A stretch of DNA of 64,000 bases from Nitrososphaerota archaeon. Its GTDB lineage: Archaea > Thermoproteota > Nitrososphaeria > Nitrososphaerales > Gagatemarchaeaceae. The notes under the pieces were generated by a model. That model searched no databases. It saw only the letters and a list, made by a program, of their open reading frames with translations, and was not told where the DNA came from. Below, one piece after another: positions 4,841 to 64,000 of this stretch (positions within the stretch are counted from its first letter, which is position 1; each line of letters starts with the position of its first letter). The DNA lies in NCBI GenBank assembly GCA_027886825.1, contig JAPCJS010000002.1:355-64354 (forward strand), in the 5' to 3' direction. The position numbers and the translations under genes were made by a program.

Positions 4841-5953
4841 ATGGAAAAGCAAGATCAGGTTAGCAACAACAGCAGAGGTTCGGGAGGCCAGCCGGCGACG
4901 GTCGACCACGAGAAGCTGAATCAGTTCCTGGGCAGGTTCGTCGCGGACCTCGGCGCGACGCTCCACGCGCCCACGGTCATAATCGGCGACAAGCTCGGGC
5001 TGTACAGGGCGATGGCGGGGGCAGGCGAGCTCACCTCATCGGAGATCGCGTCCAGGACCGGGACGTCGGAGAGGTACGTAAGGGAGTGGCTGGCTTCTCA
5101 GGCGGCGTCTGGTTACGTGATGTACAATCACCTGTCGAAGAAGTACTGGCTCAGTCCCGAGCAGGCCTTCACGCTCGCTGACGAGGCGAGTCCGGCCTTC
5201 CTGCCGGGAGCGTTCTACATAGCCGCCTCGGTCTTCAAGGACGAACCCCACATCCTGGAGGCGTTCAAGACGGGGAAGGGGCTCGGATGGCACGAGCACG
5301 ACAGCGACCTCTTCACGGGTACCGAGAAGTTCTTCCGCCCAGGCTACGCGGGCAACCTGGTCTCCTCCTGGCTTCCGGCCCTCGACGGGGTCGTGCCGAA
5401 GCTGGAGCGCGGCGGGACGGTCGCGGACGTGGGCTGCGGGCACGGGTCGTCCACGATCATCATGGCGAAGGCCTACCCGAGCTCTAGGTTCGTCGGCTAC
5501 GATATTCACGGTCCATCCATCGAGACGGCAAGAATGGAGGCGGAGAGACAAGGTCTCGGTGATAGGGTCAGGTTCGAGGTCGCAGCGGCTAGCTCCTATC
5601 CTGGAGAGGGGTTCGACCTGGTTACTGTCTTTGACGCTCTGCACGACATGGGCGACCCGGTGGGCGCAGCTTCGCACGTCCTTCACTCTCTGAAGCCTGA
5701 GGGGACGTGGATGCTCGTGGAGCCCTACGCGAACGAGAGACTGGAGGAGAACCTCAACCCCGTCGGCCGGATATTCTACAGCGCATCGACGGCCATCTGC
5801 ACGGGTGCATCCCTGTCCCAGGAGGTAGGCCTCGCGCTCGGCGCGCAGGCCGGCGATTCCAGGCTCCGGGAGGTGGTCACCAGGGGAGGGTTCACACGCT
5901 TCAGGAGAGCCGCCCAGACGCCGTTCAACAGGGTCTTCGAGGCCAGAGCTTAG
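4841..5953 (+). CDS. class I SAM-dependent methyltransferase with N-terminal wHTH (Rv2258c-like)
   Basis: Motif I is VADVGCGHGSSTII, and an acidic motif-II position lies in FVGYDIH. An N-terminal dimerisation/wHTH-like region is present. Confidence 0.85.
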   Translation: MEKQDQVSNNSRGSGGQPATVDHEKLNQFLGRFVADLGATLHAPTVIIGDKLGLYRAMAGAGELTSSEIASRTGTSERYVREWLASQAASGYVMYNHLSKKYWLSPEQAFTLADEASPAFLPGAFYIAASVFKDEPHILEAFKTGKGLGWHEHDSDLFTGTEKFFRPGYAGNLVSSWLPALDGVVPKLERGGTVADVGCGHGSSTIIMAKAYPSSRFVGYDIHGPSIETARMEAERQGLGDRVRFEVAAASSYPGEGFDLVTVFDALHDMGDPVGAASHVLHSLKPEGTWMLVEPYANERLEENLNPVGRIFYSASTAICTGASLSQEVGLALGAQAGDSRLREVVTRGGFTRFRRAAQTPFNRVFEARA

Positions 5954-6170
5954 AGCCGCCCGGGATCGGAGGCGGGTCGTCCCCTCCGAGGGAGGACACT
6001 CCCCACCGGCACGAACCTCCGCAGAGTTCGTCGTCAGGGCAGTGAAAGATCGCCCGAGGCACGGGGCGATTCAGAGCGGCCATGCAGGCCGCTTTCCCCT
6101 GAGGCCGCCTTTCAGCCTTCAATCGGATAAAGGTCCGGACTGTCTAGCTGATCAGCAAAGTCGGCGCCAT

Positions 6171-6656
6171 TCAACTGTTAAGGGCGTCGACTATCCTGTG
6201 ATGCTCCCTCTCCGGGTCTGCAACTTGTATCCCCTCCGATCTGGCACATTCCGCCAACTTCCTATCCGCCGTCAGGATCAGGGTCGATGCCGACTGTCGG
6301 GCGGTCGCCAGTTGCAATGCGTCGGCCTGGTAGATATGATGTTTCACGATAAGTTCCCTGGACTCCTCGAGCGTCTTGCTGCCGATGGGAAGGACGATCA
6401 GCCTCCTCATCGCGACGAACTTCTTGGTCTCCCCGACAAAGAGCCCCACAGCTTCCGCCATCGATCTCTCATCGAGATCTCCTCTCTGCTTCCTCGTATC
6501 GATGGCCCCGAGCACTTCACCGACGTTCCACGCCGAGAAAGCGGCCTGCATGTCACCTTCCTTCTCAAGGCCTGCGTACACAACATCGATGGACTCGGAA
6601 CCCTTCTCCTCGATGTATCGCTTCACGATCGCGCTGCTGTCAAGATAGACGAGCAT
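6171..6656 (-). CDS. vapC: PIN-domain ribonuclease toxin (VapC-like)
   Basis: MLVYLDSSAIVKRY carries the N-terminal acidic PIN motif, and later acidic residues are present. Overlaps the upstream small antitoxin-like ORF. Confidence 0.8.
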   Translation of the reverse strand: MLVYLDSSAIVKRYIEEKGSESIDVVYAGLEKEGDMQAAFSAWNVGEVLGAIDTRKQRGDLDERSMAEAVGLFVGETKKFVAMRRLIVLPIGSKTLEESRELIVKHHIYQADALQLATARQSASTLILTADRKLAECARSEGIQVADPEREHHRIVDALNS

Positions 6657-6912
6657 TTCTATCTCTTCTCTGGCTCGCGATCACCTCAGCTGAAGAGCCG
6701 GTCACCTTCGGTCTTCTGCTCCTTACTTCAGAGAGGGAAGGCAATTCGGATGCGGAGACCTTGCCTGGCAGGTTCGGCACTTTGATCAAGCCCGCGGCAA
6801 GGTACGATTCCAACGCGTCGCTCACGATGTCGCTTATCTTCCTGTTTCCCGATGTCTCCTTTAACAACCGTTTCAGGGATTCATCCACGTAGACTGTGAG
6901 TTTTTCCGTCAT
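6640..6912 (-). CDS. antitoxin-like protein (ribbon-helix-helix style N-terminus), VapB-type partner
   Basis: MTEKLTVYVDESLKRLLKE resembles an RHH-type antitoxin. ATG at 6912 is preferred over the TTG at 6936. It overlaps the vapC start by 17 nt. Confidence 0.6.
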   Translation of the reverse strand: MTEKLTVYVDESLKRLLKETSGNRKISDIVSDALESYLAAGLIKVPNLPGKVSASELPSLSEVRSRRPKVTGSSAEVIASQRRDRNARLS

Positions 6913-7091
6913 GACGTCATATCTCCAATCCGGCAAATTTAACCGTTTCAGAATCGGAGGTCGCCGAGAAGAGAAATTGCAATCGGGAAACTATGAAGAG
7001 CACGTGACGCCCTGGAAGCTCGCCAGGATGAAGCACCAGAGCTACTTGACCACAGCCTGAAGAGTTCACCCGGGCGGCAGAAGGGAAACTG

Positions 7092-7691
7092 TCAGTGGAA
7101 TGCCTCTTCTCTCTCGAACATCTTTATGATCTGGCTGATCTTCGTCTTCCTCGCCGCTTCGCTCTTCGCGTTCTCGAGCCTGAACACGACTGCGTAGACG
7201 TTGGCCTTGTTCAACGTCTTGAAGAAAGCTAGTGCCTTCTCGTTCTTCTTGAGCTGTCTGATGAAGTCTGCAGGCACCTCGGCCTTGCTCGGGGGGCTGT
7301 AGGCGCGCGCCCACCTGCCGTCCCGCTTCGCCTCCTCTATCTGCTTCAGGCCGGCTGGCCTCATCTTCCCCTCCCTGATCAGCCTCTCCGCGTGGCCCAC
7401 GTTGATCTTCGACCAGATGCTCCCTGGCCTGCGCGGGACGAACCTGTTGAGCCATGAGGTCTCGTCATAGGGACGGGCCTGTCCCGTGATCCACCCAAAG
7501 CAGAGCGCCGCGTCAAGTGCCTCGCCGGTGGTGACGGAGGCGACCTCGGAGCCCTTCCTGAAGAAGCGGATCCACGTCCCCTTCGACGAGGAGTGGTTCT
7601 TGGCCAGCCACTCTTCCCACTCCTCCGCCGACCTGAACTCGGCTACTATCTCGTCCACGGCAGAAAAAACGGGGACAGGGCAGATAAGCAT
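7092..7691 (-). CDS. YdeI/OmpD-associated (OmdA) family protein
   Basis: FRSAEEWEEWL, the CFGWITGQARPYDE block, and the C-terminal FFKTLNKANVYAVVFRLENAK block are characteristic of the YdeI family. Confidence 0.8.
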   Translation of the reverse strand: MLICPVPVFSAVDEIVAEFRSAEEWEEWLAKNHSSSKGTWIRFFRKGSEVASVTTGEALDAALCFGWITGQARPYDETSWLNRFVPRRPGSIWSKINVGHAERLIREGKMRPAGLKQIEEAKRDGRWARAYSPPSKAEVPADFIRQLKKNEKALAFFKTLNKANVYAVVFRLENAKSEAARKTKISQIIKMFEREEAFH

Positions 7692-8305: not shown

Positions 8306-8523
8306 TCCGATGGACGGACCCCGCGGATAGCGTTCCTTCCCGACTGCGAACCTTGAATCTGGGACACGCTGTAATCAGTCACATCAGATTATGACGCTCT
8401 GATGGCCATTCCGGACAATCCCGTCGAAAGCCCGTTGACTAGGTTCTCATGCGGAGATCGGGTGCGTCGAAACGCTATTTTATGGCGCATGAATCAGGAC
8501 TGCAGATAGCGCGGCCCCAACCT

Positions 8524-9489
8524 ATGAGAATCATGGAACACGATGAACTACCTTCGGGCCTGGAGGCGGACATACAGCTCCTTCGTCTCTCGGTCGGCTG
8601 GGCGCCGAGGGATTTCTACCTGACAGAGCAGGCCAGGAGCGCTGGATTTCCCTCCGCGGATTATTTCGGGCTCTATGCGGTCGAAGGCGACCGGATACTC
8701 TCGATGGTCCGTGTGCTGCGGCTGCCGTACACGTTCCCCGACGGCCACGCCGAGACCATATCGGGTGTCCTCAGCGTGATCACGAGGCAGGACTCCAGGG
8801 GGCGAGGCCTCGCACGACGGCTGCTGGACGAGGTCAACGCGCGGGAGCGCAGGGCAGGCAGCAGGTTCTCCCTTCTGTGGTCCGAATCGATCACGGCGCA
8901 CCGGCTCTATGAGTCGATGGGATACGAGGACGTCTATACGCCCGATATCGCCGCCAAAAGACCGCCCCACCGCGGCACCGCTGACGTCCCGTACGAGCTC
9001 GCGGCGGTCAAGGACGAGGACGTGCCTGCGATCGAGCGACTGCACGACGCCGCGACGCTGGAGAGGATCGGCTTTACGCCCAGGCCCCGAGGACTCCTCG
9101 GCTCCCTCATGACGTTCGGCCTCTTCAAGCCAGATTCTTTCCGGCTGATCCTCAGGAACGGGCGCCCCCTGGGCTACCTGGAGCTCCAGGAGGCACCTGG
9201 CTCGGTGAACGTATCAGAGGTCGTCATGACGGGGGACCCTTCGGACACTGCAGGCCTCCTGTCGGTCCTTGAACGGGCCTCTGCTGGCAGATGGCTGTCG
9301 TTCTGGAACACCTTCGTGCGTGACTCTAAGAAGGCCCTGGAAGGACGCGGCTACTCATTCTCGAATCTCGGGGATTCATTGTTGATGTCGGTGCCCCTGG
9401 ACAAGGTAAAATCGGAGACGCGCAGGCAGACATCTGTGCTCGGCACTGCCGATCAGAGGTTCGTGTGCCAGAGCCTCGACCACTTTTGA
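8524..9489 (+). CDS. GNAT-family N-acetyltransferase with C-terminal extension
   Basis: Acetyl-CoA motif RQDSRGRGLARRLL. Start set at MRIMEHDELP by colinearity with the paralog at 58177-59145. A TATA-like ATTTTAT lies about 40 nt upstream. Confidence 0.8.
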   Translation: MRIMEHDELPSGLEADIQLLRLSVGWAPRDFYLTEQARSAGFPSADYFGLYAVEGDRILSMVRVLRLPYTFPDGHAETISGVLSVITRQDSRGRGLARRLLDEVNARERRAGSRFSLLWSESITAHRLYESMGYEDVYTPDIAAKRPPHRGTADVPYELAAVKDEDVPAIERLHDAATLERIGFTPRPRGLLGSLMTFGLFKPDSFRLILRNGRPLGYLELQEAPGSVNVSEVVMTGDPSDTAGLLSVLERASAGRWLSFWNTFVRDSKKALEGRGYSFSNLGDSLLMSVPLDKVKSETRRQTSVLGTADQRFVCQSLDHF

Positions 9490-50462: not shown

Positions 50463-50727
50463 AATAGAGCCGAAGTGATGGTATGGGATGGAAGATGATA
50501 TAAAAGTTGTTGGTGCGGCCCTCTGACGCGTCCTAAAGTAGATTCGCACCTCTTCCAACGTGGTGGCGGATCGATCAGACTGCAAACTCCATCGGCTCTT
50601 TCTGCTGAGCATTGTCTTTTCTATCAGGACGCGTGGGCGTGGGAGATCCTTGTCGGTTCTGATCCTTACCAGCTGAGACTTTGCCAAAGCTGATATACAG
50701 AACGAGCGCGGAACTCCAGGCATCAAG

Positions 50728-51456
50728 ATGACCTCGAAGATTTCCAGCGGAATTGCGGGGTTGGACTCCATCCTGAAGGGCGGCATGCCCGAGGGTCGGG
50801 TCGTACTCGTTCTCGGCGAACCGGGCGCCGGAAAGACGATCCTTTGTTCCCAGTTCTTGCATCATGCTGCCGCCGGTGGCAAAGAGAGCGTCGCCTTCGT
50901 GGGGATGAACGAACCGAAGGCGCGCTTCATGACGGAGATGGCGGAGTTCGGAATGGACTTTGCCCAGCTGGAATCAGCGGGTTCCTTCTCATACCTTGAC
51001 GCTACTGCGATCAGGCGAATACCTGAGCAGGCCATGGTGGGCCGGATCCCCGTTGGAGGCAAGGAACTTGGGCTGGTCAACCTCATCGATATGATCCAGG
51101 AGACTGTCGAGAGGATGAAGCCCAAGCGGATCGTCGTGGACTCGATCTCAGATCTGATCTTCCGCTTCCCACTCATCGAAGAGCGTAGGCCGGTGGTCCT
51201 CGATCTGATCGAGACGCTGCAGTCTTCGGGTGCGACGACACTTCTTACAAGTGAGCTTCTGTCGACCGGCGATGATCGTTCTTTGCAGCCCGAGGAGTAT
51301 CTCGCAGAAGGTGTGATCCTGCTCCGCACCCTGAGGAAGGGTGTCAGGGTTCTCCAGGTCCTAAAGATGAGGGGCTCGGAGGTCGACACCGTCCAGAGAC
51401 CCTATGCGATCAAGGGCAGCGGGATAGAGGTCTACGCGACGGAAGAGATATACTAG
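50728..51456 (+). CDS. single-domain KaiC/RadA-like ATPase
   Basis: ISSGIAGLDSILKGGMPEGRVVLVLGEPGAGKT (Walker A), Walker B IVVDSIS, and the KMRGS motif. Confidence 0.85.
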   Translation: MTSKISSGIAGLDSILKGGMPEGRVVLVLGEPGAGKTILCSQFLHHAAAGGKESVAFVGMNEPKARFMTEMAEFGMDFAQLESAGSFSYLDATAIRRIPEQAMVGRIPVGGKELGLVNLIDMIQETVERMKPKRIVVDSISDLIFRFPLIEERRPVVLDLIETLQSSGATTLLTSELLSTGDDRSLQPEEYLAEGVILLRTLRKGVRVLQVLKMRGSEVDTVQRPYAIKGSGIEVYATEEIY

Positions 51457-51476
51457 GATTCGGCGCGCAGTTATGT

Positions 51477-52277
51477 GTGGCAGCCCGCGAAAAGCAGTCC
51501 GAGATCCCCGGGAAGGTCATGGACCTCCTCAAGACATCGAGGATAGGTTACCTCTCGGTCAAGTCGGAGAAGGGCGACCTCTACGCCTATCCGGTCGCTT
51601 TCTACTTCGCAGGGATGCAGGTCTATTTCATGACTCCGACGAGCGCGGCGAAGCTCCGGTTCATGAGGGCCAATCCGGACGTCTCGTTCCTCGTCGATAA
51701 CCGCGACCTCACGCTTGGCGCCTCGGGCGTGATGATGCAGGGACGGGTCAAGATCTTTAGCATAGCGAAGACAGTCGCATCGATCCTGTCGGTGGGCCCA
51801 AAGATGGCCAAGTTCTCCCGGAAATATCCGGGTATGTTCACGTTCTATGCAAAGGGAAGGGGACTGCCGGACGAGAGGAAGCTCTACAAGTACAGGCTCA
51901 TCAGGATTGAGCCGACCAAGGTCCTGTACTGGCTAGGTTACAAGTTCGGACGATACTCCACTGCGAAGGGCGAGAAGGACGACGCGCTCGCGCGCTCATC
52001 CGATGAAGAGAAGATGGAGGCGTTTGCCACTCTTCTCAGGGGAGCCGACGAGGAGTTCCCGGCTGGCAAGGCCCCGGCCCTTGGTGACGAATGGGAGAGC
52101 GAGGTCGACGCGGCGGTCGAGAAAGGGATCATCTCCGAGGAAGAGCACAGGGCCATCAGCTCGTTCAGAGACTTCCTGCGGCAGGCCGTCGAAGAGAACA
52201 AGCTCGGACCCCAGGTCACCGCCGGCGAGAAACTCCTCCTGAAGAAGTGGAAAAAATCGTCTTCGGTTGATGCATAG
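51477..52277 (+). CDS. PPOX-like split-barrel domain protein with an acidic 110-aa C-terminal extension
   Basis: IGYLSVKSEKGDLYAYPVAFYF...NPDVSFLVDN resembles the pyridoxamine 5-phosphate oxidase fold. The C-terminal half has no recognised family. Confidence 0.65.
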   Translation: MAAREKQSEIPGKVMDLLKTSRIGYLSVKSEKGDLYAYPVAFYFAGMQVYFMTPTSAAKLRFMRANPDVSFLVDNRDLTLGASGVMMQGRVKIFSIAKTVASILSVGPKMAKFSRKYPGMFTFYAKGRGLPDERKLYKYRLIRIEPTKVLYWLGYKFGRYSTAKGEKDDALARSSDEEKMEAFATLLRGADEEFPAGKAPALGDEWESEVDAAVEKGIISEEEHRAISSFRDFLRQAVEENKLGPQVTAGEKLLLKKWKKSSSVDA

Positions 52278-52513
52278 CCGAGATCTCACACGACGCGGCA
52301 AGAAATCACTCGGGATGCCGCAACGGGGCTCAAAAAATCGTTGTGCTGATTCGACAAGCGCATTCGCTCGGTGAAGGGACTGATAGGCTCCACTGGGCTT
52401 CCCAGCCGGCGAGCGAGCCAGGACCCGTCTGCGGTATTGAGGCGATTGTGTAATACCTTTGACTCGTCATTAGAAGACATGATATCGCGTAGAAGGATAC
52501 AGGTGGATAGAAA

Positions 52514-53923: not shown

Positions 53924-55480
53924 CTAGTCCGGCTGTTTCACGACGACCGGCTGTTCATCCTGCGGGGTCCAGGCCTTCTTGGACTTTGCGACCCAGGAGA
54001 ACCTCCTCTGGAGGGAGGTGGTGTAGAGCTTGTTCCAGTCCAGGCCCGCGTAGTCGCACCATGACTTGTAGACCCGGGGGTCGATGTAGTTCTTGAGAGA
54101 GGTGTTGAGGTTGTAGTCCTTGGTCTTCTTGGTGAACTCCACATCCAGCGACATCTTCCTGGCCATGCCCTCCTTCCCCTTTGCTCTGTACTCGGCAAGC
54201 TTCTCCTCCTTCTTCTTCAGGGTCTGCTCCCATGTCTTGGGCGGGGTCCGCTTGTGGTTGCAGAAGATCGCGGCTGAGAGGTTGGCCTCCTTCGCAAAGT
54301 AGCGCTTCTCCAGCTCGTCAGCGTCGCGAACGTCTTTACTACTGAGGCTCTTCTTTGTCTCGAGGGTCGCGTGGTACGTCCTGAAGACCTTCGCCGTCAG
54401 GCCTGGGATGATCTCGGAGAGGAATCGGTTGACCATGCTAGAGGTGACCACATCGAAGATCTCGTCGCTCGGCTTCTTCTTGGCCGTGAAGCGGCGCAGG
54501 TTCTGGACCAGGATCGGCTCGGGGTTGGAGAGAGTCTTGACCCATCTTACACTGTCCTTTCCGAGGAAATCGAACTCTATCCTCGCGTCATCAATCTTGA
54601 CGTGCTCCACCCTCAGCGTGGTTGCGCCGACGGTGTCGGCCTCGTCCTCGTCCTTCTCGTCGCCCACCCTCATTCCCAGCTTGTCGATGAGGTAGCTGAC
54701 CGTGGCGATCTTCCTCTTCTTTTCGTCTCTCGAGGCCATGGCCTCCAGGGTCTTCCGGCGCAGCTTGCCGAGTTGCCCCTCTATCCGAAGGGCCTTGTCG
54801 TACTTGTCCTTGCTCCTCGACTGCTGGATCTCGGAGCTCTCGTGGGGCCAGACGTACTTCTCCCTCCCGGTGAGCGCGTCTATCCACTTGGCGATCCAGA
54901 TCGACTCATGGTCGTGCACGATGGCGCCCCAGGCGCCAGGGGGGACCGGGGAGGACTCATCCAGATTGAGGGTGACGTGCCTCTGCTCCACCCTTGGCTT
55001 CCAGCTGCCCCGGAGCGGGTGCGCTCCCCGTCCCATGAACAGGCCAGGGGGTTCGACCAGCCAGTTGGCTATCTCGATCTCGTTCTCGTCTATCGCCGCC
55101 TTTCCGTACTTCTCCTTCAGCTTCTCCCGGAGCTCCTTCCGGGAGACGGCCTGGCCCTTCTTCTCCTCCTTGCCCATCGCCTCCTTGGTGTGCTTCTCGG
55201 CATCGGCGAGCCTGTAGAACTGGGAAAAGTCGATCTCAGAGAAACTTGCGCCCCTGAACGCCTCAGGGAGCTCCCTGCTGAAGTGCTTCATGAAGTTCGC
55301 GACGAAGACAGGGTCCTGCACGTAGGGGGTGTCCTTCTTCTTGGCGAAGTTGTAGGCCATCTCCTCTGCCATGGGAGACAGACTCACAGGCTCGCCCCTG
55401 ATCGCCACCGTCAGACCCTTCGGTATGTAGGGGTCGGGAAACGCAACCCCGTTGTGTCGCAGGATCTTCCAGACTGGCAT
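53924..55480 (-). CDS. eukaryotic-type DNA topoisomerase IB
   Basis: GNEK-like VGDEKDEDEADTVGATTLRVEHV, AKVFRTYHAT, AIFCNHKR, and the active-site TSLKNYIDPRVY. All match canonical Topo IB blocks. Confidence 0.9.
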   Translation of the reverse strand: MPVWKILRHNGVAFPDPYIPKGLTVAIRGEPVSLSPMAEEMAYNFAKKKDTPYVQDPVFVANFMKHFSRELPEAFRGASFSEIDFSQFYRLADAEKHTKEAMGKEEKKGQAVSRKELREKLKEKYGKAAIDENEIEIANWLVEPPGLFMGRGAHPLRGSWKPRVEQRHVTLNLDESSPVPPGAWGAIVHDHESIWIAKWIDALTGREKYVWPHESSEIQQSRSKDKYDKALRIEGQLGKLRRKTLEAMASRDEKKRKIATVSYLIDKLGMRVGDEKDEDEADTVGATTLRVEHVKIDDARIEFDFLGKDSVRWVKTLSNPEPILVQNLRRFTAKKKPSDEIFDVVTSSMVNRFLSEIIPGLTAKVFRTYHATLETKKSLSSKDVRDADELEKRYFAKEANLSAAIFCNHKRTPPKTWEQTLKKKEEKLAEYRAKGKEGMARKMSLDVEFTKKTKDYNLNTSLKNYIDPRVYKSWCDYAGLDWNKLYTTSLQRRFSWVAKSKKAWTPQDEQPVVVKQPD

Positions 55481-56828: not shown

Positions 56829-56942
56829 GGGCCCGTAGCTTAGTTCCCGGATGGGAGAGAAATCAGGTAGAGCATCGGGCTTTTAACCCGAGGGTCAGGA
56901 CGACCGAAACCCCCTAAACGGGTTCGATTCCCGTCGGGCCCG
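56829..56942 (+). tRNA. tRNA-Lys (anticodon UUU) carrying two non-canonical insertions (putative introns)
   Basis: Removing 56846-56865 and 56897-56917 leaves a 73-nt cloverleaf. Acceptor GGGCCCG/CGGGCCC; D-arm GCTT-AGTTGGTA-GAGC; anticodon arm TCGGG-CTTTTAA-CCCGA; variable loop GGGTC; T-arm ACGGG-TTCGATT-CCCGT; discriminator G. Confidence 0.75.
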
Positions 56943-56952
56943 CTCCAAATCC
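56923..56952. repeat. direct repeat copy 1 (tRNA-Lys T-loop to 10 nt past the 3-prime end), att-like
   Basis: ttcgattcccgtcgggcccgctccaaatcc is identical to 57915-57944. Confidence 0.9.
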
Positions 56953-57914
56953 AGTTTCATTAGTTCGTAGAGAGCAAATTGAGCTGTTTCGGCACGAAGG
57001 ATACCGCAGACCTTGTGAAACGGATAATACGCAGCTCATGGGCTCGCGAATTGAGTAAAGTGCCAGACTATTCCCTGAGGGTAAGCGAATCTGAGGTAAG
57101 GCGGTATCTCTTCATGGCTGAACAGGCTCAGAAGCTTGAAGGAGACCTATGGGCCCTTGCAGGGATTGCTCCCGGGGCGGTAATCGCCGACGTAGGGTGC
57201 GGTCCGGCTGCCGTAGCGGTGGTGATGAGCCGAATCGTCGGGCCGAAGGGAAGAGTGATTGGAGTCGACAGAGACGAGAGTGCACTCGCGGCGGCCCGTC
57301 AGGTGACGAAGGAAGCAGGAGCGGCAAACCTCCAGCTACGACTGGGGACGGCAACTTCGACCGGGTTGGAGCCCTCGAGCCTCGACGTCGCGGTGTTGCG
57401 CCACGTTCTTGCTCATAATGGGGGTAAAGAACAGGAGATCGTCAGACACATGGCATCCCTCGTTCGGCCAAAGGGCGCCGTCTACTTAGTGGACATCGAC
57501 CTTACTGCTGCACGGACGCTCGATGATGACCCAGAACTCTTGGACCTTGGGGAAAGGTACAACGACTTTCACCGAGGATTGGGAAATGACACCTCGGTTG
57601 GTCTCCGATTGGGTAAGTTGGTTGTTGGAGCGGGACTTGAGTTGGATCGACACGTCGGTGTCTATCAGATTGTAAGTTTGGTGCCAGGTATTCGACCTCC
57701 CGCTTGGGCTGCTAGGGAAGCAATGCTGGCCGCAGGAGGCATTACGCCTCAAGACGTCTCAAGGTGGCAAGCAGCTTTCGAGCGCTTGGACAAACGAGCC
57801 CTGCGCCCAACCTTGTTCATCCCCCTCTTTATCGCAATCGGACGGCGTAGGACCGAGCAGAGCATCTGACATGCGTCCGGTTGTTTCGATACCAATTCCG
57901 GCTGCGTTTTTCGC
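56953..57914. mobile_element. putative integrated-element remnant bounded by 30-bp tRNA-derived direct repeats
   Basis: A 962-bp segment between the perfect repeats carries only one methyltransferase gene. No integrase is visible. Codon third positions look more A/T-rich than in flanking core genes. Confidence 0.4.
56979..57869 (+). CDS. class I SAM-dependent methyltransferase (cargo between the direct repeats)
   Basis: Motif I is VIADVGCGPAAVAVV, followed by the acidic VIGVDRDE. TTG start, or a later ATG. Confidence 0.8.
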   Translation: MSCFGTKDTADLVKRIIRSSWARELSKVPDYSLRVSESEVRRYLFMAEQAQKLEGDLWALAGIAPGAVIADVGCGPAAVAVVMSRIVGPKGRVIGVDRDESALAAARQVTKEAGAANLQLRLGTATSTGLEPSSLDVAVLRHVLAHNGGKEQEIVRHMASLVRPKGAVYLVDIDLTAARTLDDDPELLDLGERYNDFHRGLGNDTSVGLRLGKLVVGAGLELDRHVGVYQIVSLVPGIRPPAWAAREAMLAAGGITPQDVSRWQAAFERLDKRALRPTLFIPLFIAIGRRRTEQSI

Positions 57915-57944
57915 TTCGATTCCCGTCGGGCCCGCTCCAAATCC
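57915..57944. repeat. direct repeat copy 2, att-like
   Basis: Perfect 30-bp copy of the tRNA-Lys 3-prime end, with no 5-prime tRNA half upstream. Confidence 0.9.
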
Positions 57945-58176
57945 GGTTCGATACCCAGATTCCTTCTTCGAACTGGGTTCCATTGTAGCAAGGAGTAACT
58001 GACATAGGGGATAAAGGGACCACTGAACTCCTGCGCGTAAGCCGCACAAATTGTTAGCGCAGGTCTTGAGCGGCGAGGACGTGGCATAGTCTGCCCTCTC
58101 GATCGAGAGACCTTACCCCACCCATCAGCATGACCTACGAGAGCAATAATAAGCGCTCATTCCATATCAGATCTCT

Positions 58177-59145
58177 TTGCGAATACTGACGCATGACGAA
58201 CTCCCTGCAGAATGGGAGGACCGAGTCCAGCTCATGGACGCCTCAACCAACTGGATGCCCGTCGCCTTCAAGAGGCTGAGGGAAGTGATTAGACTTGGTT
58301 ATCCCGCAGCCGACTATTGGGCAGTCTACGCTGTCGAGAATGACCAGGTACTCTCCGGCGTTCGCGTGGTACGCATCCCATACACGATGAGGAACGGCAG
58401 AACAGAGATCGTGTCAGGGATTCAAGGTGTTGTAACTAGGAGGGAATTCTCCCGAAGGGGGCTCGCAAGGACGCTCTTGGCTGAAGTGCACCGGAGAGAA
58501 GCAGAGGCCGGGAGCAGGCTCTCGATTCTTGTGACCGATTTCAGCTACATCGCGCACAACCTCTACCTATCGATGGGATACGTCGACGTACACTCCGGCA
58601 GGCTCGCCATGAAGAGGCTTGATTCAAGCGGGGAAAAGAACAAGCGGCCTGGTGATTTCAGGGTCGTTCCCGCCAAGGCGAATGATGCAGAGACGATAGA
58701 GAGAATTCACTCCGAAGCGACGAAGGGGCGCGTAGGGTTCACGCCCCGGCCGAAAGGTTACCTGAGGGCGTTGCTCAAGCTGGGTCAGGTCGAGCACAAC
58801 TCATTCCGTTTGATTCTCAGTGAGGGCAAGCCTGTGGCCTATTTTCATTTCAGAAAGGGGAGCGGTTGGTTCAACCCCAATGAAGTGGTGATGAAGCCGG
58901 GGATAGATCCTGCAACTGTCCTTGCGGTCCTTGAACGCGAGGCTTCGAACGGCTGGCTGGTCCTTTACGGAACATTTGTGAACGACACTATGGCATTGCT
59001 GAAGAAGCGCAACTATCTCTTCACGGACCACTCGTACTCGGGAGTCCTCGCCAAGCCACTTGGGGACGAGAGGCGTCGAGATGTCAGGAAAGAGATGGGC
59101 ATCGATGATGACTCGTTTACGTGTCAGTTTCTTGACTACTTCTAA
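58177..59145 (+). CDS. GNAT-family N-acetyltransferase, diverged paralog of 8524-9489
   Basis: Colinear with the 8.5-kb copy from MRI..HDELP to the C-terminal F.CQ.LD.F. Acetyl-CoA motif RREFSRRGLARTLL. TTG start. Confidence 0.8.
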   Translation: MRILTHDELPAEWEDRVQLMDASTNWMPVAFKRLREVIRLGYPAADYWAVYAVENDQVLSGVRVVRIPYTMRNGRTEIVSGIQGVVTRREFSRRGLARTLLAEVHRREAEAGSRLSILVTDFSYIAHNLYLSMGYVDVHSGRLAMKRLDSSGEKNKRPGDFRVVPAKANDAETIERIHSEATKGRVGFTPRPKGYLRALLKLGQVEHNSFRLILSEGKPVAYFHFRKGSGWFNPNEVVMKPGIDPATVLAVLEREASNGWLVLYGTFVNDTMALLKKRNYLFTDHSYSGVLAKPLGDERRRDVRKEMGIDDDSFTCQFLDYF

Positions 59146-59195
59146 GCCATTGGAGGAAATGCGCCTCCGCGAGAGCAATCGGATGAAGTGGGTCG

Positions 59196-59918
59196 TTAAG
59201 AGCGGGGCGCAGTTCTCCGGTTGTCGCCGGATGTCTCTCGACTACCAGTAACCTCTTCCTTCGGACTTCTAAAGAACATCGCGTTGACGATGATCGTCCC
59301 TATCAGTGGGATCCACCACAGGGCGAACCGGAGGGGGACCTGGTCGAAGGACCAGTCCCAGGCCTGCGGCAGGGCGGTGAACAGGAACAGTGCGGCAAAG
59401 AATGCGTTCGCTTTCGCCGCGAACCTCGCCTTGCGCAGGTACCCTCGCGGGATGAGGTGCTTCTCTTCGATTGACAAGTTGTAGCTGAAGAAGGCGAGTA
59501 TCCCCGTGACCCCGGTCAGGACAAGCCCGTAGAGCTGCGAAGAATAGGCGCCCAGCGGAGTGTCGGCGGGGATCGGGAGCGGCGGGCTCACGAATTTCAC
59601 CCCGTTGATCAGGTAGGACATCAGGATTATCAGAAGGAGCAGGAAAGCGTTCGCTAAGACCATCCTGCCCGTCTCCACGGGCATCCTGGACATGACCATC
59701 GTGTACTGGAGCCAGACCGCGATGAGGACGACGAAGTTGAAGATGAAGGCGATCAGGCGCGGGGTGAGCTCGTCCGGCGTCGTGGGGGGCTGGGCGATCA
59801 GGGCCAGCGCGCCGACAGACAGTGCGAGCCCGAACATCAGGTCGGAGAGCGACTCGATGCGTCTTCTAGAGATAGGACCCGACCTTTCCTCGGCCCGACC
59901 CTCGTCATCAACCGGCAT
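59196..59918 (-). CDS. TMEM175/DUF1211-family membrane protein (putative K+ channel)
   Basis: RRIESLSDLMFGLALSVGAL resembles the RxExFSDGVFAIAITL helix-1 signature. About six TM helices. Confidence 0.6.
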   Translation of the reverse strand: MPVDDEGRAEERSGPISRRRIESLSDLMFGLALSVGALALIAQPPTTPDELTPRLIAFIFNFVVLIAVWLQYTMVMSRMPVETGRMVLANAFLLLLIILMSYLINGVKFVSPPLPIPADTPLGAYSSQLYGLVLTGVTGILAFFSYNLSIEEKHLIPRGYLRKARFAAKANAFFAALFLFTALPQAWDWSFDQVPLRFALWWIPLIGTIIVNAMFFRSPKEEVTGSRETSGDNRRTAPRS

Positions 59919-60494
59919 GCGTGCGGAAGCGGTCCGGCCGGTAGATTAGTTTATGTCGCCGGGTTGGAGCTGATGCAGGACCCTCAGCGAGCCGGGGTTG
60001 CTCGATTCCTCCACTCTTGATAATCAGGGACCCCAGTTTCCTTGATCCCGTGCTAGTGTGGTCAATGATGAGACGGAGCCAGGGTGGACTTGTGACTCGG
60101 GTCCCGGTATCGGCTGGATGCGGACCTCTTCGCCGTTCTCGAAGAGTGCACAGCCGCATCCTGCAGCGTGGCCGCCGCGCTACCGCCGATGGTTCCGGCG
60201 GATCGGCTTCATATTTTCTTCGGCGAGTAGGTTCTCCTTCGAAGGATGAAAATCACCAGGACCGTCGCCACGATGAGCAGACCAAGGCCGGCCAGCAACT
60301 CGGGCACCGGCGCAAGAGGACAGGGCGTGACCGTTATTGTGTTCGTCACGTCGAAGACCACCAGCTGAGCCACGTGGCGCCAAGGTCTTACATTTCGCGG
60401 ATGCGCTCCCCTTCGACTGTATCGGTATCGAGGGTCGTTCGGAGCCCGGGTTCACCGGTCGACCTAAATATTCGCGCAGCCCAGTCACTGCGTA

Positions 60495-62018
60495 ATGAGC
60501 AGGCGGCCCACGTTGATCGGACTCGTACTATGTCTCCTGCTCAGTCTCAGTCCGTTCACGGCCCACGCATACTCCAACGGCCAGACCGCCTCCATCGCGC
60601 TGGGACAGCCGAACTTGACGGGCGACTACTCCGCCACGAGCCAAACCGGGTTGACCTCGAACGGGTATGCTGACCCACAGTACAGTGGGGTCGCAGTCGA
60701 CACATCAGGGGACATCTGGGTCGCCGATTCCGGCAACAACAGGGTCCTCGAGTTCGCCTCCCCGTGGTCGAACGGAGAAAAGGCCTCCCTCGTGCTCGGC
60801 CAGCCGGACTTCAAGAGCAGTTCCGCTGCTACGACCGCGTCCGGCATGAATGACCCGCGGGGCGTCTTTGTCGACAAGGGTGGTAACGTTTGGGTCGCGG
60901 ACTCTGGCAACAACAGGGTCCTGGAGTTTCTGTGGGCGAGAATCCTGCCTTTACCGGGACCTTTAGTGAAAAGCATCGTCGCCATTGGTTTCACAAACGG
61001 TCAGGCCGCTTCGCTCCTGGTCGGCCAGCAGGACTTCAAGAGCAGTTCCGCTGCTACGACCCAGACCGGTCTGAACTTCCCCACGGGCGTGGCGATCGGT
61101 CCGGCGGGTAACCTCTGGGTGGCCGACAACAAGAACAACAGGGTCCTCCAGTTTACACACCCGTTCTCGAACGGAGAAAAGGCCTCACTGGCGCTCGGCC
61201 AGGACGGCTACAAGAGCAGCGCAGAAAGCACGGACCAGTATGGTCTCTGGCATCCGTATGGAATCGCAGTCGACTCCCATGGCAACGTCTGGGTCGCCGA
61301 CTCCGGCAACAGCAGGGTAGTCGAGTTCGATTCAAACCACGTTCAGAACCAGGTGGAAAACATCGTGCTCGGCCAGCCCAGTTTCTCATACGATAGCCCT
61401 GTCACATCAAAGACCGGCATGTCCAGTCCGCTCGGCGTGACGGTCGACGCGCACGGCAACGTCTGGGTAGCGGACTCTGGCAACAACAGGGTCCTGGAGT
61501 TCCTGAAGGGAAAGGGCTTCACCGACGCTCAGGCCGGCTACCTCGTGCTGGGCCAGTCCGGCTTCACGAGCAGCACACTTGCCTATACTGCCTTTGGCCC
61601 AACTGACACGAGCTCCACGGGATTGGGGCACCCAACCGGTGTCGCAGTCGACTCGCGCGGCAACATCTGGGTGGCCGATTCGGACAACGACAGGGTGCTC
61701 CAGTTCCGTTCGGCGACGACCACCAAAGTCAGCTGCGTCCCCGATACCGTTCACACCGGTAATTCCAGCTGCACCTTCACGGTCAGCAACACAGGAAAAG
61801 TGACGGTGAGTCCGTCGGGAACGGTCATGGTAACATCAACGGGACCGGTCAAGGCATCTGGCTCCTGCACCATCTCGTGGAGCGGCTCCTCGGCAAGTTG
61901 CACCCTGTCGATTAACACCGACATTGTTGGGACATACTCGGTTGCGGCGACATACGGGGGAGATGGGAGACACCTGGGGAGCACGGGTACGGCCACAGTC
62001 ACCGTCTCGATAGGCTAG
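60495..62018 (+). CDS. secreted six-bladed NHL-repeat protein with C-terminal Ig-like domain
   Basis: Signal peptide, six copies of G(N/D)(V/I/L)WVADSGNNRVLEF, and a C-terminal beta-rich, Cys-containing region of about 100 aa. Confidence 0.85.
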   Translation: MSRRPTLIGLVLCLLLSLSPFTAHAYSNGQTASIALGQPNLTGDYSATSQTGLTSNGYADPQYSGVAVDTSGDIWVADSGNNRVLEFASPWSNGEKASLVLGQPDFKSSSAATTASGMNDPRGVFVDKGGNVWVADSGNNRVLEFLWARILPLPGPLVKSIVAIGFTNGQAASLLVGQQDFKSSSAATTQTGLNFPTGVAIGPAGNLWVADNKNNRVLQFTHPFSNGEKASLALGQDGYKSSAESTDQYGLWHPYGIAVDSHGNVWVADSGNSRVVEFDSNHVQNQVENIVLGQPSFSYDSPVTSKTGMSSPLGVTVDAHGNVWVADSGNNRVLEFLKGKGFTDAQAGYLVLGQSGFTSSTLAYTAFGPTDTSSTGLGHPTGVAVDSRGNIWVADSDNDRVLQFRSATTTKVSCVPDTVHTGNSSCTFTVSNTGKVTVSPSGTVMVTSTGPVKASGSCTISWSGSSASCTLSINTDIVGTYSVAATYGGDGRHLGSTGTATVTVSIG

Positions 62019-62118
62019 GTCAGCTTCGAACTTCGATAAGACGCTCCCCGGGGTCACAGCGGTAGAGCGTTTTTTCAGAAGTCTTAAATCGAGAATCTCC
62101 CAGTCAAGAGCGAAGAAC

Positions 62119-63300
62119 GTGTCGTCAACCTATCAGGGGCCCGCCGAGAGGATGGTTCCTTTGCTTCTTCTTGCCCTTTTGGTTCTCGCCTGTGCTTCGA
62201 GCGTTCCTCCGGCCAGAGCACAGGTAGTCAAAGCAACAGTGACAGTCGGAATGACCCCCTACGGCGTTGCCTACGACTCCGGAAAGGGCGAGGTCTTCGT
62301 CGCAAACAGGGACTCGGACAACGTCTCGGTCATCTCAGATAGCACCAATTCCGTTGTGTCGATGGTGTCAGTGCCCGTCGAACCCTTTGGCTTGGCCTAC
62401 GACCCTGCAAAGAACGAGGTCTTCGTCGCGTGTAGCAGCTCCGACGTCGTCTCAGTGATTTCTGACGCCACCAACTCGATTGTGGCTAACGTGACCTTGC
62501 CGGCGGGGTCGGGACCGCAGGGCCTCGTCTACGACCCGTCCAAGGGCGAGGTTTTCGTGACAGATTTTGTCTCGGCCCAGGTCTCGGTGATATCGGATAC
62601 CAGCAACAAAGTAATCGCGACCGTCGGCGTGGGAGGCGGACCCTACGAAGCAGCGTACGACTCCGCCAAGGGCGAAGTGTTCGTGGCTGATGGGTATGGT
62701 TCGAACAATGTCTCGGTGATCTCAGACACCACGAACACAATCGTCACGAACGTGACCGTAGGAGACATGCCCTTCGGCGCGGCCTATGACCCGTCCAAGG
62801 GCGAGGTCTTTGTCGCAGACGGCGCGGACAGCAATGTCTCCGTAATCTCGGATGCAAACAACCAGGTTGTCTCGACGATAATAGGGATCGGCTTCTATGA
62901 CGTCCTCTATGACCCGACCACGAATGAGGTGTACGTGGCAAACGGTGGAAGCGGCGGGGTCTCGGTGGTCTCCGACGCTAACAACTCCGTCGTCTCGACC
63001 TTGAACGTAGACGGCGGTGTCGGCGAGGCATACGACTCCGCGAGGGGCGAGGTATTCGTCGCCAACTCTGACAATGGCACGGTCTCCGTGATATCAGATG
63101 CACCCGCTTCGGTGTCTACCAGCGCTGCGACAAGCACGACCGGTACATCAACGACGACAGCATCGAGTTCGACTGGCGGAGGGGGAGGAGTGCCGGTGTT
63201 CCCCTATGCGATCGCCACGGCAATAGTCTTTACGGTCATCCTGTCGGCATCTTACCTGCTGGTCAGGCGTCGCGTTACTATCAAGGGGCCCTCTGAATAG
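62119..63300 (+). CDS. YVTN-type seven-bladed beta-propeller surface protein with C-terminal TM anchor
   Basis: Signal peptide, seven roughly 40-aa repeats (P.G.AYD..KGEVFVA....NVSVISD..N.VV), an S/T linker, then TM plus RRR. Confidence 0.85.
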   Translation: MSSTYQGPAERMVPLLLLALLVLACASSVPPARAQVVKATVTVGMTPYGVAYDSGKGEVFVANRDSDNVSVISDSTNSVVSMVSVPVEPFGLAYDPAKNEVFVACSSSDVVSVISDATNSIVANVTLPAGSGPQGLVYDPSKGEVFVTDFVSAQVSVISDTSNKVIATVGVGGGPYEAAYDSAKGEVFVADGYGSNNVSVISDTTNTIVTNVTVGDMPFGAAYDPSKGEVFVADGADSNVSVISDANNQVVSTIIGIGFYDVLYDPTTNEVYVANGGSGGVSVVSDANNSVVSTLNVDGGVGEAYDSARGEVFVANSDNGTVSVISDAPASVSTSAATSTTGTSTTTASSSTGGGGGVPVFPYAIATAIVFTVILSASYLLVRRRVTIKGPSE

Positions 63301-63660
63301 GACGGCCGATTTACCGTCAATAGGTCCCGCCTCTCGAAGTCGCGGGAGTGGTACACGCGGCTCTTTGGAAAAGGGCCCGACCTGGAACACTTTCCCGGAA
63401 ATGTCGAGTACAGGATCGGCGGTGTTTGGGTGCAGATCGTGAGCGGTAAGGTGCATGCCTCGAGCTGGACCCTCCTGATCGAAGTCCGAGACCTGACCCG
63501 TGTGAGAGAGCGGGTGCGTGAAAGCGGGATTACAGCCACCGAGATCGAGACAGTTCCTAGTGTAATCAGTTACTTCGATCTTAGCGACCCCGATGGTAAT
63601 GCCATGAGGTGGTTCCAGGTTCTGACGTCCGATCCCAGGGTCACAGGTATTCGCGATTAG
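63301..63660 (+). CDS. VOC/glyoxalase-fold ORF lacking a canonical start at its N-terminus
   Basis: Homology-like sequence (SREWYTRLFGKGPD...YFDLSDPDGNAMRWFQ) starts immediately after the YVTN TAG stop, in the same frame. The first ATG/GTG/TTG is at 63430, mid-domain. Confidence 0.5.
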   Translation, partial: DGRFTVNRSRLSKSREWYTRLFGKGPDLEHFPGNVEYRIGGVWVQIVSGKVHASSWTLLIEVRDLTRVRERVRESGITATEIETVPSVISYFDLSDPDGNAMRWFQVLTSDPRVTGIRD

Positions 63661-63720
63661 GGTACGGACAAGGAAGACTCACGAGAGGTGTCCCATACCG
63701 CCACCCGAAGACGATGGTTC

Positions 63721-63999
63721 CTAGGGACGACGCTTCAGACAAGCGTGCCATCTGCGATATGAGGGGGCGGTCAAGATGAGCGCAGCTGTGACCCGGCCGC
63801 CATCAAGAGAGTGCGATTCCTGCCTGGGATGCCCCCGGGAGTAGTTTCGTGACAGATTGAGCAGTTCCTCCACCGACCAGTGGTCGTCTAGGCGCTTGCC
63901 ATACTTGGCCGCGACGACCCTGCCAGCGGGGCTGATGAGGAATTCCGCCGGCAGGCCAGAATGATTCTCGCCCTTGCCTTTGGCTCCGTGCAGACGGTT
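63721..63999 (-). CDS. thioredoxin-fold AhpC/TSA-like protein, C-terminal part (5-prime end outside the window)
   Basis: Not in the ORF track. The minus-strand frame from 63999 reads GLPAEFLISPAGRVVAAKYGKRLDDHWSVEELL, typical of peroxiredoxin-like proteins. Stop at 63721-63723. Confidence 0.45.
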   Translation of the reverse strand, partial: NRLHGAKGKGENHSGLPAEFLISPAGRVVAAKYGKRLDDHWSVEELLNLSRNYSRGHPRQESHSLDGGRVTAALILTAPSYRRWHACLKRRP

Positions 64000-64000
64000 G

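Follow-up and report, generated by a model that had tools for sequence, protein, structure and literature searches.

The stretch of DNA analyzed here, referred to below as the window, covers 64,000 nucleotides of contig JAPCJS010000002.1 from a Nitrososphaerota archaeon (assembly GCA_027886825.1), and carries directly behind a tRNA-Lys(UUU) gene a 962-bp segment which is bracketed by two copies of a 30-bp repeat and which encodes a predicted class I S-adenosylmethionine (SAM)-dependent methyltransferase. Site-specific integration of this segment into the tRNA gene is well supported by sequence comparison. We consider it probable that the segment is a satellite cassette bounded by attachment (att) sites, which derives from or depends on integrase-bearing elements and has been moved in trans. 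As such it appears to be part of a previously undescribed group of tiny, integrase-less cassettes that are stacked and exchanged at tRNA-Lys in archaea related to this soil host. The features discussed are located in Table 1.

The 30-bp repeat, TTCGATTCCCGTCGGGCCCGCTCCAAATCC, occurs in the 64-kb window as two exact copies on the same strand, and no third copy was found in it even allowing 3 mismatches; also, 100 dinucleotide shuffles of the window yielded no repeat of this kind. The bases bordering the two copies are unlike on both sides (g/c to the left and a/g to the right), which sets the length of the repeat at exactly 30 bp. The first copy comprises the T-loop, the 3′ strands of the T-stem and of the acceptor stem and the discriminator, followed by 10 nt of trailer. 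The second begins in the T-loop, and is preceded neither by the 5′ strand of the T-stem nor by the 5′ half of a tRNA. The tRNA gene itself was overlooked by both ARAGORN and Rfam in the raw window because of its two non-canonical insertions: when these are taken out, ARAGORN calls a tRNA-Lys(ttt) at this position, and the same insertion-bearing layout is common to about 50 loci of Nitrososphaerales. The tRNA-Lys(UUU) is the integration target and is still intact after the insertion, with the insert bracketed by a direct repeat of its 3′ part, as is typical of elements that target tRNA genes. The alternative of a split tRNA gene was rejected, given that the second copy lacks the T-stem 5′ strand and that an intact tRNA-Lys is found 1 kb upstream.

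A comparison with related sites indicates what the locus looks like when the cassette is absent. The loci compared are contigs from metagenome-assembled genomes (MAGs) or metagenomes, mostly 8-kb excerpts, none of which yielded a complete element with both ends. Searching for the exact 30-mer gave no match in genome representatives or viral contigs, and a 20-mer core search gave none in the viral contigs. Scanning metagenomes with the 30-mer resulted in the identification of a contig (L004) in which the 3′ exon of the tRNA and the 30-mer run straight into a homologue of the right flank (57945–58032). A second cassette-less site is found in a species-representative MAG (L063) with the same antiporter-tRNA synteny, where a complete tRNA is followed by the core and then by the 57945 flank, with one mismatch in the trailer. 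Indeed, deleting positions 56953–57944 from the window reproduces the sites of L063 and L004, which thus represent the unoccupied form of the target. The first 42 nt of the flank (57945–57986) are 95–100% identical to L004, L063 and two further contigs (L003 and L005), and the similarity to L004 reaches 58032. Since the flank behind the second repeat copy is the one that the cassette-less sites also have, this copy is the cassette's own attR. Contigs L003 and L005 share the identical 30-mer and right flank and have different DNA on the left; there, about 220 nt from the 30-mer, L005 retains a tyrosine integrase pseudogene, namely the C-terminal half interrupted by a stop codon. Where these two contigs diverge, around 160 nt to the right of the shared flank, L005 carries a transposase-like open reading frame (ORF) at 1470–2492, assigned by eye to the IS110 family. 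The site has other occupants as well. Locus L084 has the same order of endonuclease IV, topoisomerase IB, antiporter and tRNA genes as the window, at 73–78% identity, and there the core is followed by an inverted copy of a conserved arm sequence, described below, and by a gene for a 423-aa integrase; a tyrosine integrase lies behind the tRNA-Lys core in the same arrangement in L024 (Ca. Gagatemarchaeum stordalenia) and in L064.

Table 1. Features of the tRNA-Lys locus in the window (positions of the whole 64-kb stretch)
Feature	Position	Strand	Details	Basis
tRNA-Lys(UUU)	56829–56942	+	two non-canonical insertions (~56845–56864 in the D-loop; ~56897–56917 before the T-stem)	
attL core (repeat copy 1)	56923–56952	+		exact repeat
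Inserted cassette	56953–57914	+	962 bp (992 bp with one core); no integrase	
Class I SAM-dependent methyltransferase	57060–57869	+	269 aa from the likely GTG start	Pfam, NCBIfam
Conserved element-end arm, directly 5′ of the attR core	57870–57914	+		homology, profile
attR core (repeat copy 2)	57915–57944	+	without tRNA 5′ half	exact repeat
Right flank common to cassette-less and differently occupied sites	57945–58032	+		
Probable older island material, membership uncertain	58033–64000	.	GNAT, TMEM175-like, NHL and YVTN propeller proteins	

The arm consists of the 45 nt between the stop codon of the methyltransferase gene and the second repeat copy, and homologues of it are found directly 5′ of core copies in ten other loci (L008, L010, L029, L031, L035, L036, L041, L048, L072 and L073). 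A hidden Markov model (HMM) of arm and core matches the window at 57876–57942 with E=1.7e-14, a value that is partly circular because the 14 sites from which the model was built include the window's own; the homology of the putative arm to the other sites is nevertheless independent evidence for it. In the rest of the window the model detects nothing besides the tRNA core. In L024 and L084 an inverted arm separates the tRNA core from the start of the integrase gene, which ties the arm to the integrase family of these loci (family A). Within the arm of the window there is a miniature inverted repeat (GCG at 57904–57906, a TTTTT loop, and CGC at 57912–57914), and arms of type 1 have a 4-bp inverted repeat with a loop of A or T residues just before the core (columns 35–47 of alignment A2). 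Compensatory changes are observed in three of the four pairs across 13 sites, with pairing at 86.5% against 67.5% in shuffles, a level that none of 500 shuffles reached in what is a small sample of related sequences. We regard this covariation as a lead only; the inverted repeat might serve as a palindrome bound by protein, form a hairpin or act as a terminator.

The methyltransferase is the sole real gene within the 962 bp, and it matches the Pfam families Methyltransf_31, Methyltransf_25 and Methyltransf_11 with E values from 1e-17 to 5e-12. The longest ORF opens at TTG 56979, and GTG 57060 is the likely start codon, as deduced from comparison with homologues of 265 aa and with the ATG of the copy in contig L001. 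The relatives in the PDB are CouO/NovO and enzymes of the ArsM type, so that the predicted protein resembles enzymes acting on small molecules (ArsM, UbiE, CouO) and not DNA methyltransferases; a role in restriction-modification was rejected on the basis of these family and PDB matches. The closest homologue (P0001, 92% identity) is the one encoded in L001, followed by a few at 64–71%, including P0002 (71%) from contig L079. The remaining listed homologues are 57–63% identical, and those among them with a named organism are all from Actinobacteria; the contigs bearing homologues of 61–68% identity have a GC content of 67%. The GC content at third codon positions (GC3) is 0.59 in the methyltransferase gene, against 0.83–0.87 in the genes for topoisomerase IB, the antiporter and endonuclease IV, and the gene is therefore taken to be foreign to the host genome. 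Together with the actinobacterial origin of the nearest non-archaeal homologues, this gives the segment the foreign cargo typical of elements that target tRNA genes. What it lacks from the make-up of such elements is an integrase of its own: the cassette holds the methyltransferase gene only and has no modules for recombination or transfer, as expected of an integrase-less satellite.

The preliminary description of this locus, made from the window alone, is thus upheld in its central points. The perfect 30-bp duplication of the tRNA-Lys 3′ end is borne out by the exact search and the shuffles, and a Pfam scan and tblastn agree that the enclosed 962 bp encode only the methyltransferase and no integrase. 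The empty site that it proposed to look for in relatives, with the tRNA directly before 57945, exists in L063 and L004, and tyrosine integrases at tRNA-Lys, which it also suggested seeking, are found in L084, L024 and L064 and, decayed, in L005. Its reading of the two repeats as attL and attR is supported by the cassette-less site, the integrase-bearing occupants, the conserved motif at the element end and the foreign composition of the cargo. It had asked whether homologues of the methyltransferase sit on archaeal viruses or plasmids; the enzyme is not viral or plasmid-like.

Copies of the cassette gene in other contexts suggest how it is distributed. Contig L001 is an 11-kb, archaeal-looking contig (54.6% GC) with a thermopsin gene, and in it positions 56960–57910 of the window recur at 8465–9409 with 89.5% identity in an otherwise unrelated context. 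The homology opens 7 nt past the end of the attL core and closes 4 nt before the attR core, with a 7-nt deletion in the arm. A 7-nt repeat, CAGAAAC, was noted by eye near both junctions in L001 and is too short to count. The ratio of nonsynonymous to synonymous substitution rates (dN/dS) between the two methyltransferase copies is 0.25, as expected for a gene that is under purifying selection. In L079 (56.7% GC) a gene for a 71%-identical methyltransferase is followed, about 190 nt past its stop codon, by a degenerate core with a typical tRNA-Lys trailer. From these two copies it follows that the methyltransferase lineage travels as cargo in these archaea.

The integrases found at tRNA-Lys fall into two families. 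Those of family A give weak but consistent signals of tyrosine recombinases (PF00589 with E=0.007, XerA/XerC with 2e-5), carry the motifs SGIRIGA, HSIRKF and GHS..SYY, read by eye in the translations, and have 1909 homologues, some of which match PF00589 and several of which are annotated as site-specific integrases. In family B the integrase (440–445 aa) begins 73 nt after the start of the core in L023 (244–1581), L066, L067 and L077, preceded by CTCCNAATCC GGTTCGATACCCAG CGTTAAATGCG; the second of these, GGTTCGATACCCAG, which opens the DNA behind the core in the family-B loci, is identical to the first 14 nt of the right flank in the window. Truncated genes of family B occur in L047, L076, L022 and L050/L011. 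The presence of both families at this site indicates that the 3′ end of tRNA-Lys is an integration hot spot in the order. The related integrases are whole and begin 50–75 nt after the core; in L064 a stop codon upstream, in frame, was noted by eye. A screen of 1637 ORFs with regular expressions for tyrosine-recombinase motifs returned false positives only. That family A also occurs away from tRNA-Lys is seen in a separate locus, L082 (8416–11275), where two integrase genes, one matching PF00589 and one of family A, stand back to back beside another tRNA (3′ end AATTCCCGGCGGGCCCG), and ThiF/JAB and DUF87 genes come after them.

Whole arrays of such cassettes are found in relatives. A search with the core GATTCCCGTCGGGCCCG, allowing up to 3 mismatches, was carried out over 73 loci, with about 5 matches expected by chance in the whole set. 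In approximately 15 of these 73 Nitrososphaerales loci, two to five core copies follow tRNA-Lys on one strand, spaced 0.6–3.4 kb apart, with an arm before each tRNA-Lys 3′ fragment. The units so delimited hold one or two genes each and no integrase, their cargo comprising PIN and RelE-like toxins, two other class I methyltransferases, NUDIX, rhomboid, OsmC and DUF4256 proteins, an adenylate cyclase, and NHL and TMEM175-like proteins; within the 8-kb loci, no integrase was seen beside any array. In L041 (minus orientation, 5246–7570) a three-unit array stands behind tRNA-Lys, one unit having a gene for a different class I methyltransferase on the opposite strand and the next a pair of genes, identified by eye, for a ribbon-helix-helix antitoxin and a RelE-like toxin (Pfam assigns no family to the 98-aa ORF). 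The first 345 positions of L048 (minus orientation) contain, within 170 nt, an arm and a degenerate Lys core and then T-arm-like fragments, ggttcaaatccctc and ggttcgaatcccca, which resemble other tRNAs. These pieces have the look of att remnants that have accumulated in Ca. Gagatemarchaeum stordalenia.

Three pairwise comparisons show whole units moving between genomes. Between L008 and L072, the 2.3 kb of host DNA that lead up to the tRNA have 92.9% identity. The first units of these loci are unrelated, and further along they share a 982-bp unit that, together with both bounding cores, is 99.4% identical. Between L014 and L048, a 1.8-kb unit ending at a core is 95.0% identical, compared with 75.1% for the topoisomerase IB DNA of the same genomes. 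Finally, L029 and L041 share a toxin-antitoxin unit that occupies different positions in their arrays.

The mechanism that we propose for the window starts from a small att-bounded unit made of a promoter region, the methyltransferase gene and the 45-nt arm. A tyrosine integrase would recombine the tRNA-Lys 3′ end borne by the element (arm and core) with the chromosomal tRNA-Lys(UUU), which would rebuild the tRNA and leave the 30-bp core on either side. The cassette would accordingly be a satellite or remnant of the tRNA-Lys-targeting elements that are common in Nitrososphaerales, residing in a Gagatemarchaeaceae-like host, and its movement, present or past, would occur in trans through the integrase of a full-length element recognizing the same arm and core. 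As the unit carries no recombinase, this was either lost or never present. We infer that the insertion seen in the window was catalyzed by an integrase, that the cognate enzyme belongs to family A, and that mobilization of the cassette is still possible.

A number of observations weigh against a satellite moved in trans. No match to the integrases of families A and B was obtained by tblastn in the whole 64-kb window. The att ends of the cassette are unequal: the right one has the arm and core seen with family-A integrases, and the left one has the core only, the arm-plus-core HMM detecting no inverted arm there, so that the cassette may lack half of a full attP. Comparison of the left end with the DNA downstream of tRNA-Lys in L014 gave a score of 27, no higher than the best of 300 shuffles, and with the integrase promoter region of L024 a score of 19, which is not significant. 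The copy in L001 has no core, no tRNA and no Rfam match in its contig, and its flanks show no similarity above shuffles to the tRNA and att region of the window; it therefore did not arise by simple integration into tRNA-Lys. Decayed integrases are frequent among relatives at the site, making plain decay common, and the sharing of units at high identity could also be brought about by recombination between repeated cores.

These points bear most directly on the alternative that the segment is a dead remnant, namely a multi-kilobase element that lost its integrase and most other genes by internal deletion and is now an immobile fossil, which we judge rather unlikely, albeit the strongest of the competing explanations. 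The truncated or frameshifted integrases in L005, L047, L076, L022 and L050/L011 speak for it, as do the missing inverted arm, seen on the integrase side of intact elements, and the fact that the integrated elements described in Thaumarchaeota span 2.6–98 kb and all bear an integrase (PMC6563490). However, random deletion leaves unexplained why the homology to L001 ends within a few nucleotides of both cores, and why sister cassettes are 95–99% identical in genomes that are 75–93% identical elsewhere. Also, the attR core of the window is intact at 30 of 30 positions, whereas the distal cores of arrays have 1–3 mismatches in 17 nt, and the methyltransferase gene is under purifying selection. 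It is the boundaries shared with L001 and the horizontal exchange of sister units that lead us to favor a unit moved in trans over an inert fossil, even though the two overlap, as a remnant may still be movable in trans. The preliminary description had left three options side by side. Its minimal cassette mobilized in trans is favored, and its heavily decayed element overlaps with this and is not exclusive of it. From its boundary of nested insertions, what holds is that the cassette is the tRNA-proximal unit and that the DNA to its right looks older; the second repeat copy, being the cassette's own attR, does not fit that option.

The arrays suggest a broader idea, that soil Thaumarchaeota (Nitrososphaerales) run a tRNA-Lys-anchored exchange of cassettes in which integrases encoded elsewhere capture single-gene units, stack them and swap them between species, each unit carrying a module of about 65 nt made of the conserved arm with its mini-hairpin and the tRNA-derived core. 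We hold this to be doubtful at present; if true, the system would do the work of integrons with other components, and the methyltransferase unit would be a fresh, intact member of it. More improbable still is a platform of the integron kind proper, with the tRNA-Lys core as the fixed site, the arm and core acting like attC, and a dedicated integrase shuffling single-gene cassettes. Arrays of up to five units, each ending in the conserved module of about 65 nt, would fit such a platform, and so would the distal unit shared by L008 and L072 while their tRNA-proximal units differ, the compensatory changes in the small arm hairpin, and the cargo, which is of the sort usual in cassette pools (toxins of the PIN and RelE kinds, methyltransferases, and small proteins of unknown function). 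However, the 8-kb loci hold no integrase beside any array, and where an integrase is present it directly follows the tRNA with no cassettes in between. In addition, the core is combined with at least 4 types of arm, a diversity that points to several families of elements and not to a single platform; the cassette genes lie in both orientations, and tandem accretion with decay accounts for arrays without any dedicated system. As for an artefact, in which the second 30-mer would stem from a chimeric join in the assembly or from the tRNA end having been duplicated locally, the contig collection offers no second assembly against which to compare (the YVTN protein, topoisomerase IB and three start variants of the methyltransferase are unmatched in it), but the explanation is hardly credible given the independent metagenome contigs with the 30-mer in an attR-like junction and the same right flank (L003 and L005), the independent cassette-less contig L004, the family-wide arm beside the second copy, and a repeat shorter than the largest k-mers common in metagenome assembly.

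The surroundings of the locus differ on its two sides. To the left of the tRNA lie genes for endonuclease IV, a eukaryote-type topoisomerase IB and a Na+/H+ antiporter, a block that is syntenic with L024 and other Nitrososphaerales MAGs at 73–83% nucleotide identity and that identifies the host as a group I.1c-like thaumarchaeon. The topoisomerase IB (53924–55480, minus strand), with its Topoisom_I_N, Topoisom_I and Topo_C_assoc domains, is a marker of Thaumarchaeota. Further left, 1.9 kb of the window (50514–52433), with genes for a KaiC/RecA-like ATPase and a PNPOx-like protein, have no counterpart in L024, L074 and L084, which are syntenic in other respects. To the right, the stretch beyond the shared flank is not syntenic with any of the relatives that match the window on the left; its genes, within 58177–63300, encode GNAT, TMEM175-like, NHL plus Big_3_5 and YVTN propeller proteins and have GC3 values of 0.67–0.76, below those of the core genes, and similar types of cargo are found in arrays elsewhere. 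The DNA to the right of attR is probably an older island, with the methyltransferase cassette as its newest, tRNA-proximal addition. No additional arm or core was detected in 57945–64000, and a tandem array on this side could therefore not be shown.

Little is understood of how genes flow into the non-ammonia-oxidizing soil Thaumarchaeota, whose mobile elements are searched for by way of integrase genes. The units described here, from below 1 kb up to 3 kb in size, insert at a single tRNA gene, are invisible to such searches, and combine cargo of bacterial origin with an identity between species far above that of the surrounding chromosome. Should such units be moved in trans, they would offer a simple and testable route to the acquisition of single genes in archaea, for which the arm-plus-core module provides a sequence handle to locate them. 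We found no description of such a module closing stacked and exchanged integrase-less units in archaea, although no dedicated literature search was made.

Among the nearest known systems are the thaumarchaeal integrated elements described by Krupovic et al. (2019), which range from 2.6 to 98 kb, bear an integrase and have a median att length of 17 bp (PMC6563490). The window shares with them integration at tRNA 3′ ends, including those of intron-containing tRNAs, direct att repeats, reuse of the site, and tyrosine integrases in the related occupants of tRNA-Lys. It differs in the size of the unit (0.96 kb), the lack of an integrase and the 30-bp att, and without an integrase it escapes any search anchored on that gene. 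Elements of the SSV type (named after Sulfolobus spindle-shaped viruses) in Crenarchaeota and Thermococcales have 'suicidal' integrases, with the att site inside the integrase gene so that its fragments flank the element (PMC7253208). They too target tRNA 3′ ends and, once trapped, decay into captured genes, but a split-integrase element was rejected for the window, as neither end of the cassette has integrase-like coding and the related integrases are whole. The tycheposon islands of Prochlorococcus are anchored at tRNA genes and carry integrase and replication modules (bioRxiv 10.1101/2020.12.28.424599). In common with the locus studied here, they push older material outward, contain scattered partial tRNAs and degenerated integrases and bear adaptive cargo; unlike it, they are not reported to contain integrase-less units, sub-kilobase to 3 kb in size, that end in an arm-plus-core module.

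A further parallel is offered by the cis-mobilizable elements (CIMEs) of streptococci, which are bacterial, integrase-less, att-flanked satellites, usually of several kilobases, whose mobilization has been shown by experiment. Like these, the cassette has no genes for recombination or transfer, would move with or by a co-resident full element, and belongs to a site where accretion takes place; of its two att ends, the right one has the arm and core seen with family-A integrases and the left one the core. The host is, however, an archaeon, the units often hold a single gene, and their mobility is deduced from comparative data. With integron cassettes, the units have in common their small size and mostly single genes, a conserved hairpin-like recombination module, and the fact that they are shared and reordered. 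Neither the cassette nor the arrays have an integrase beside them, whether of the IntI type with an adjacent attI or otherwise, nor a platform promoter, and instead of the attC architecture with its paired R and L boxes there is an arm with a 4-bp mini-hairpin, the rest being a core derived from the tRNA, next to genes in mixed orientation.

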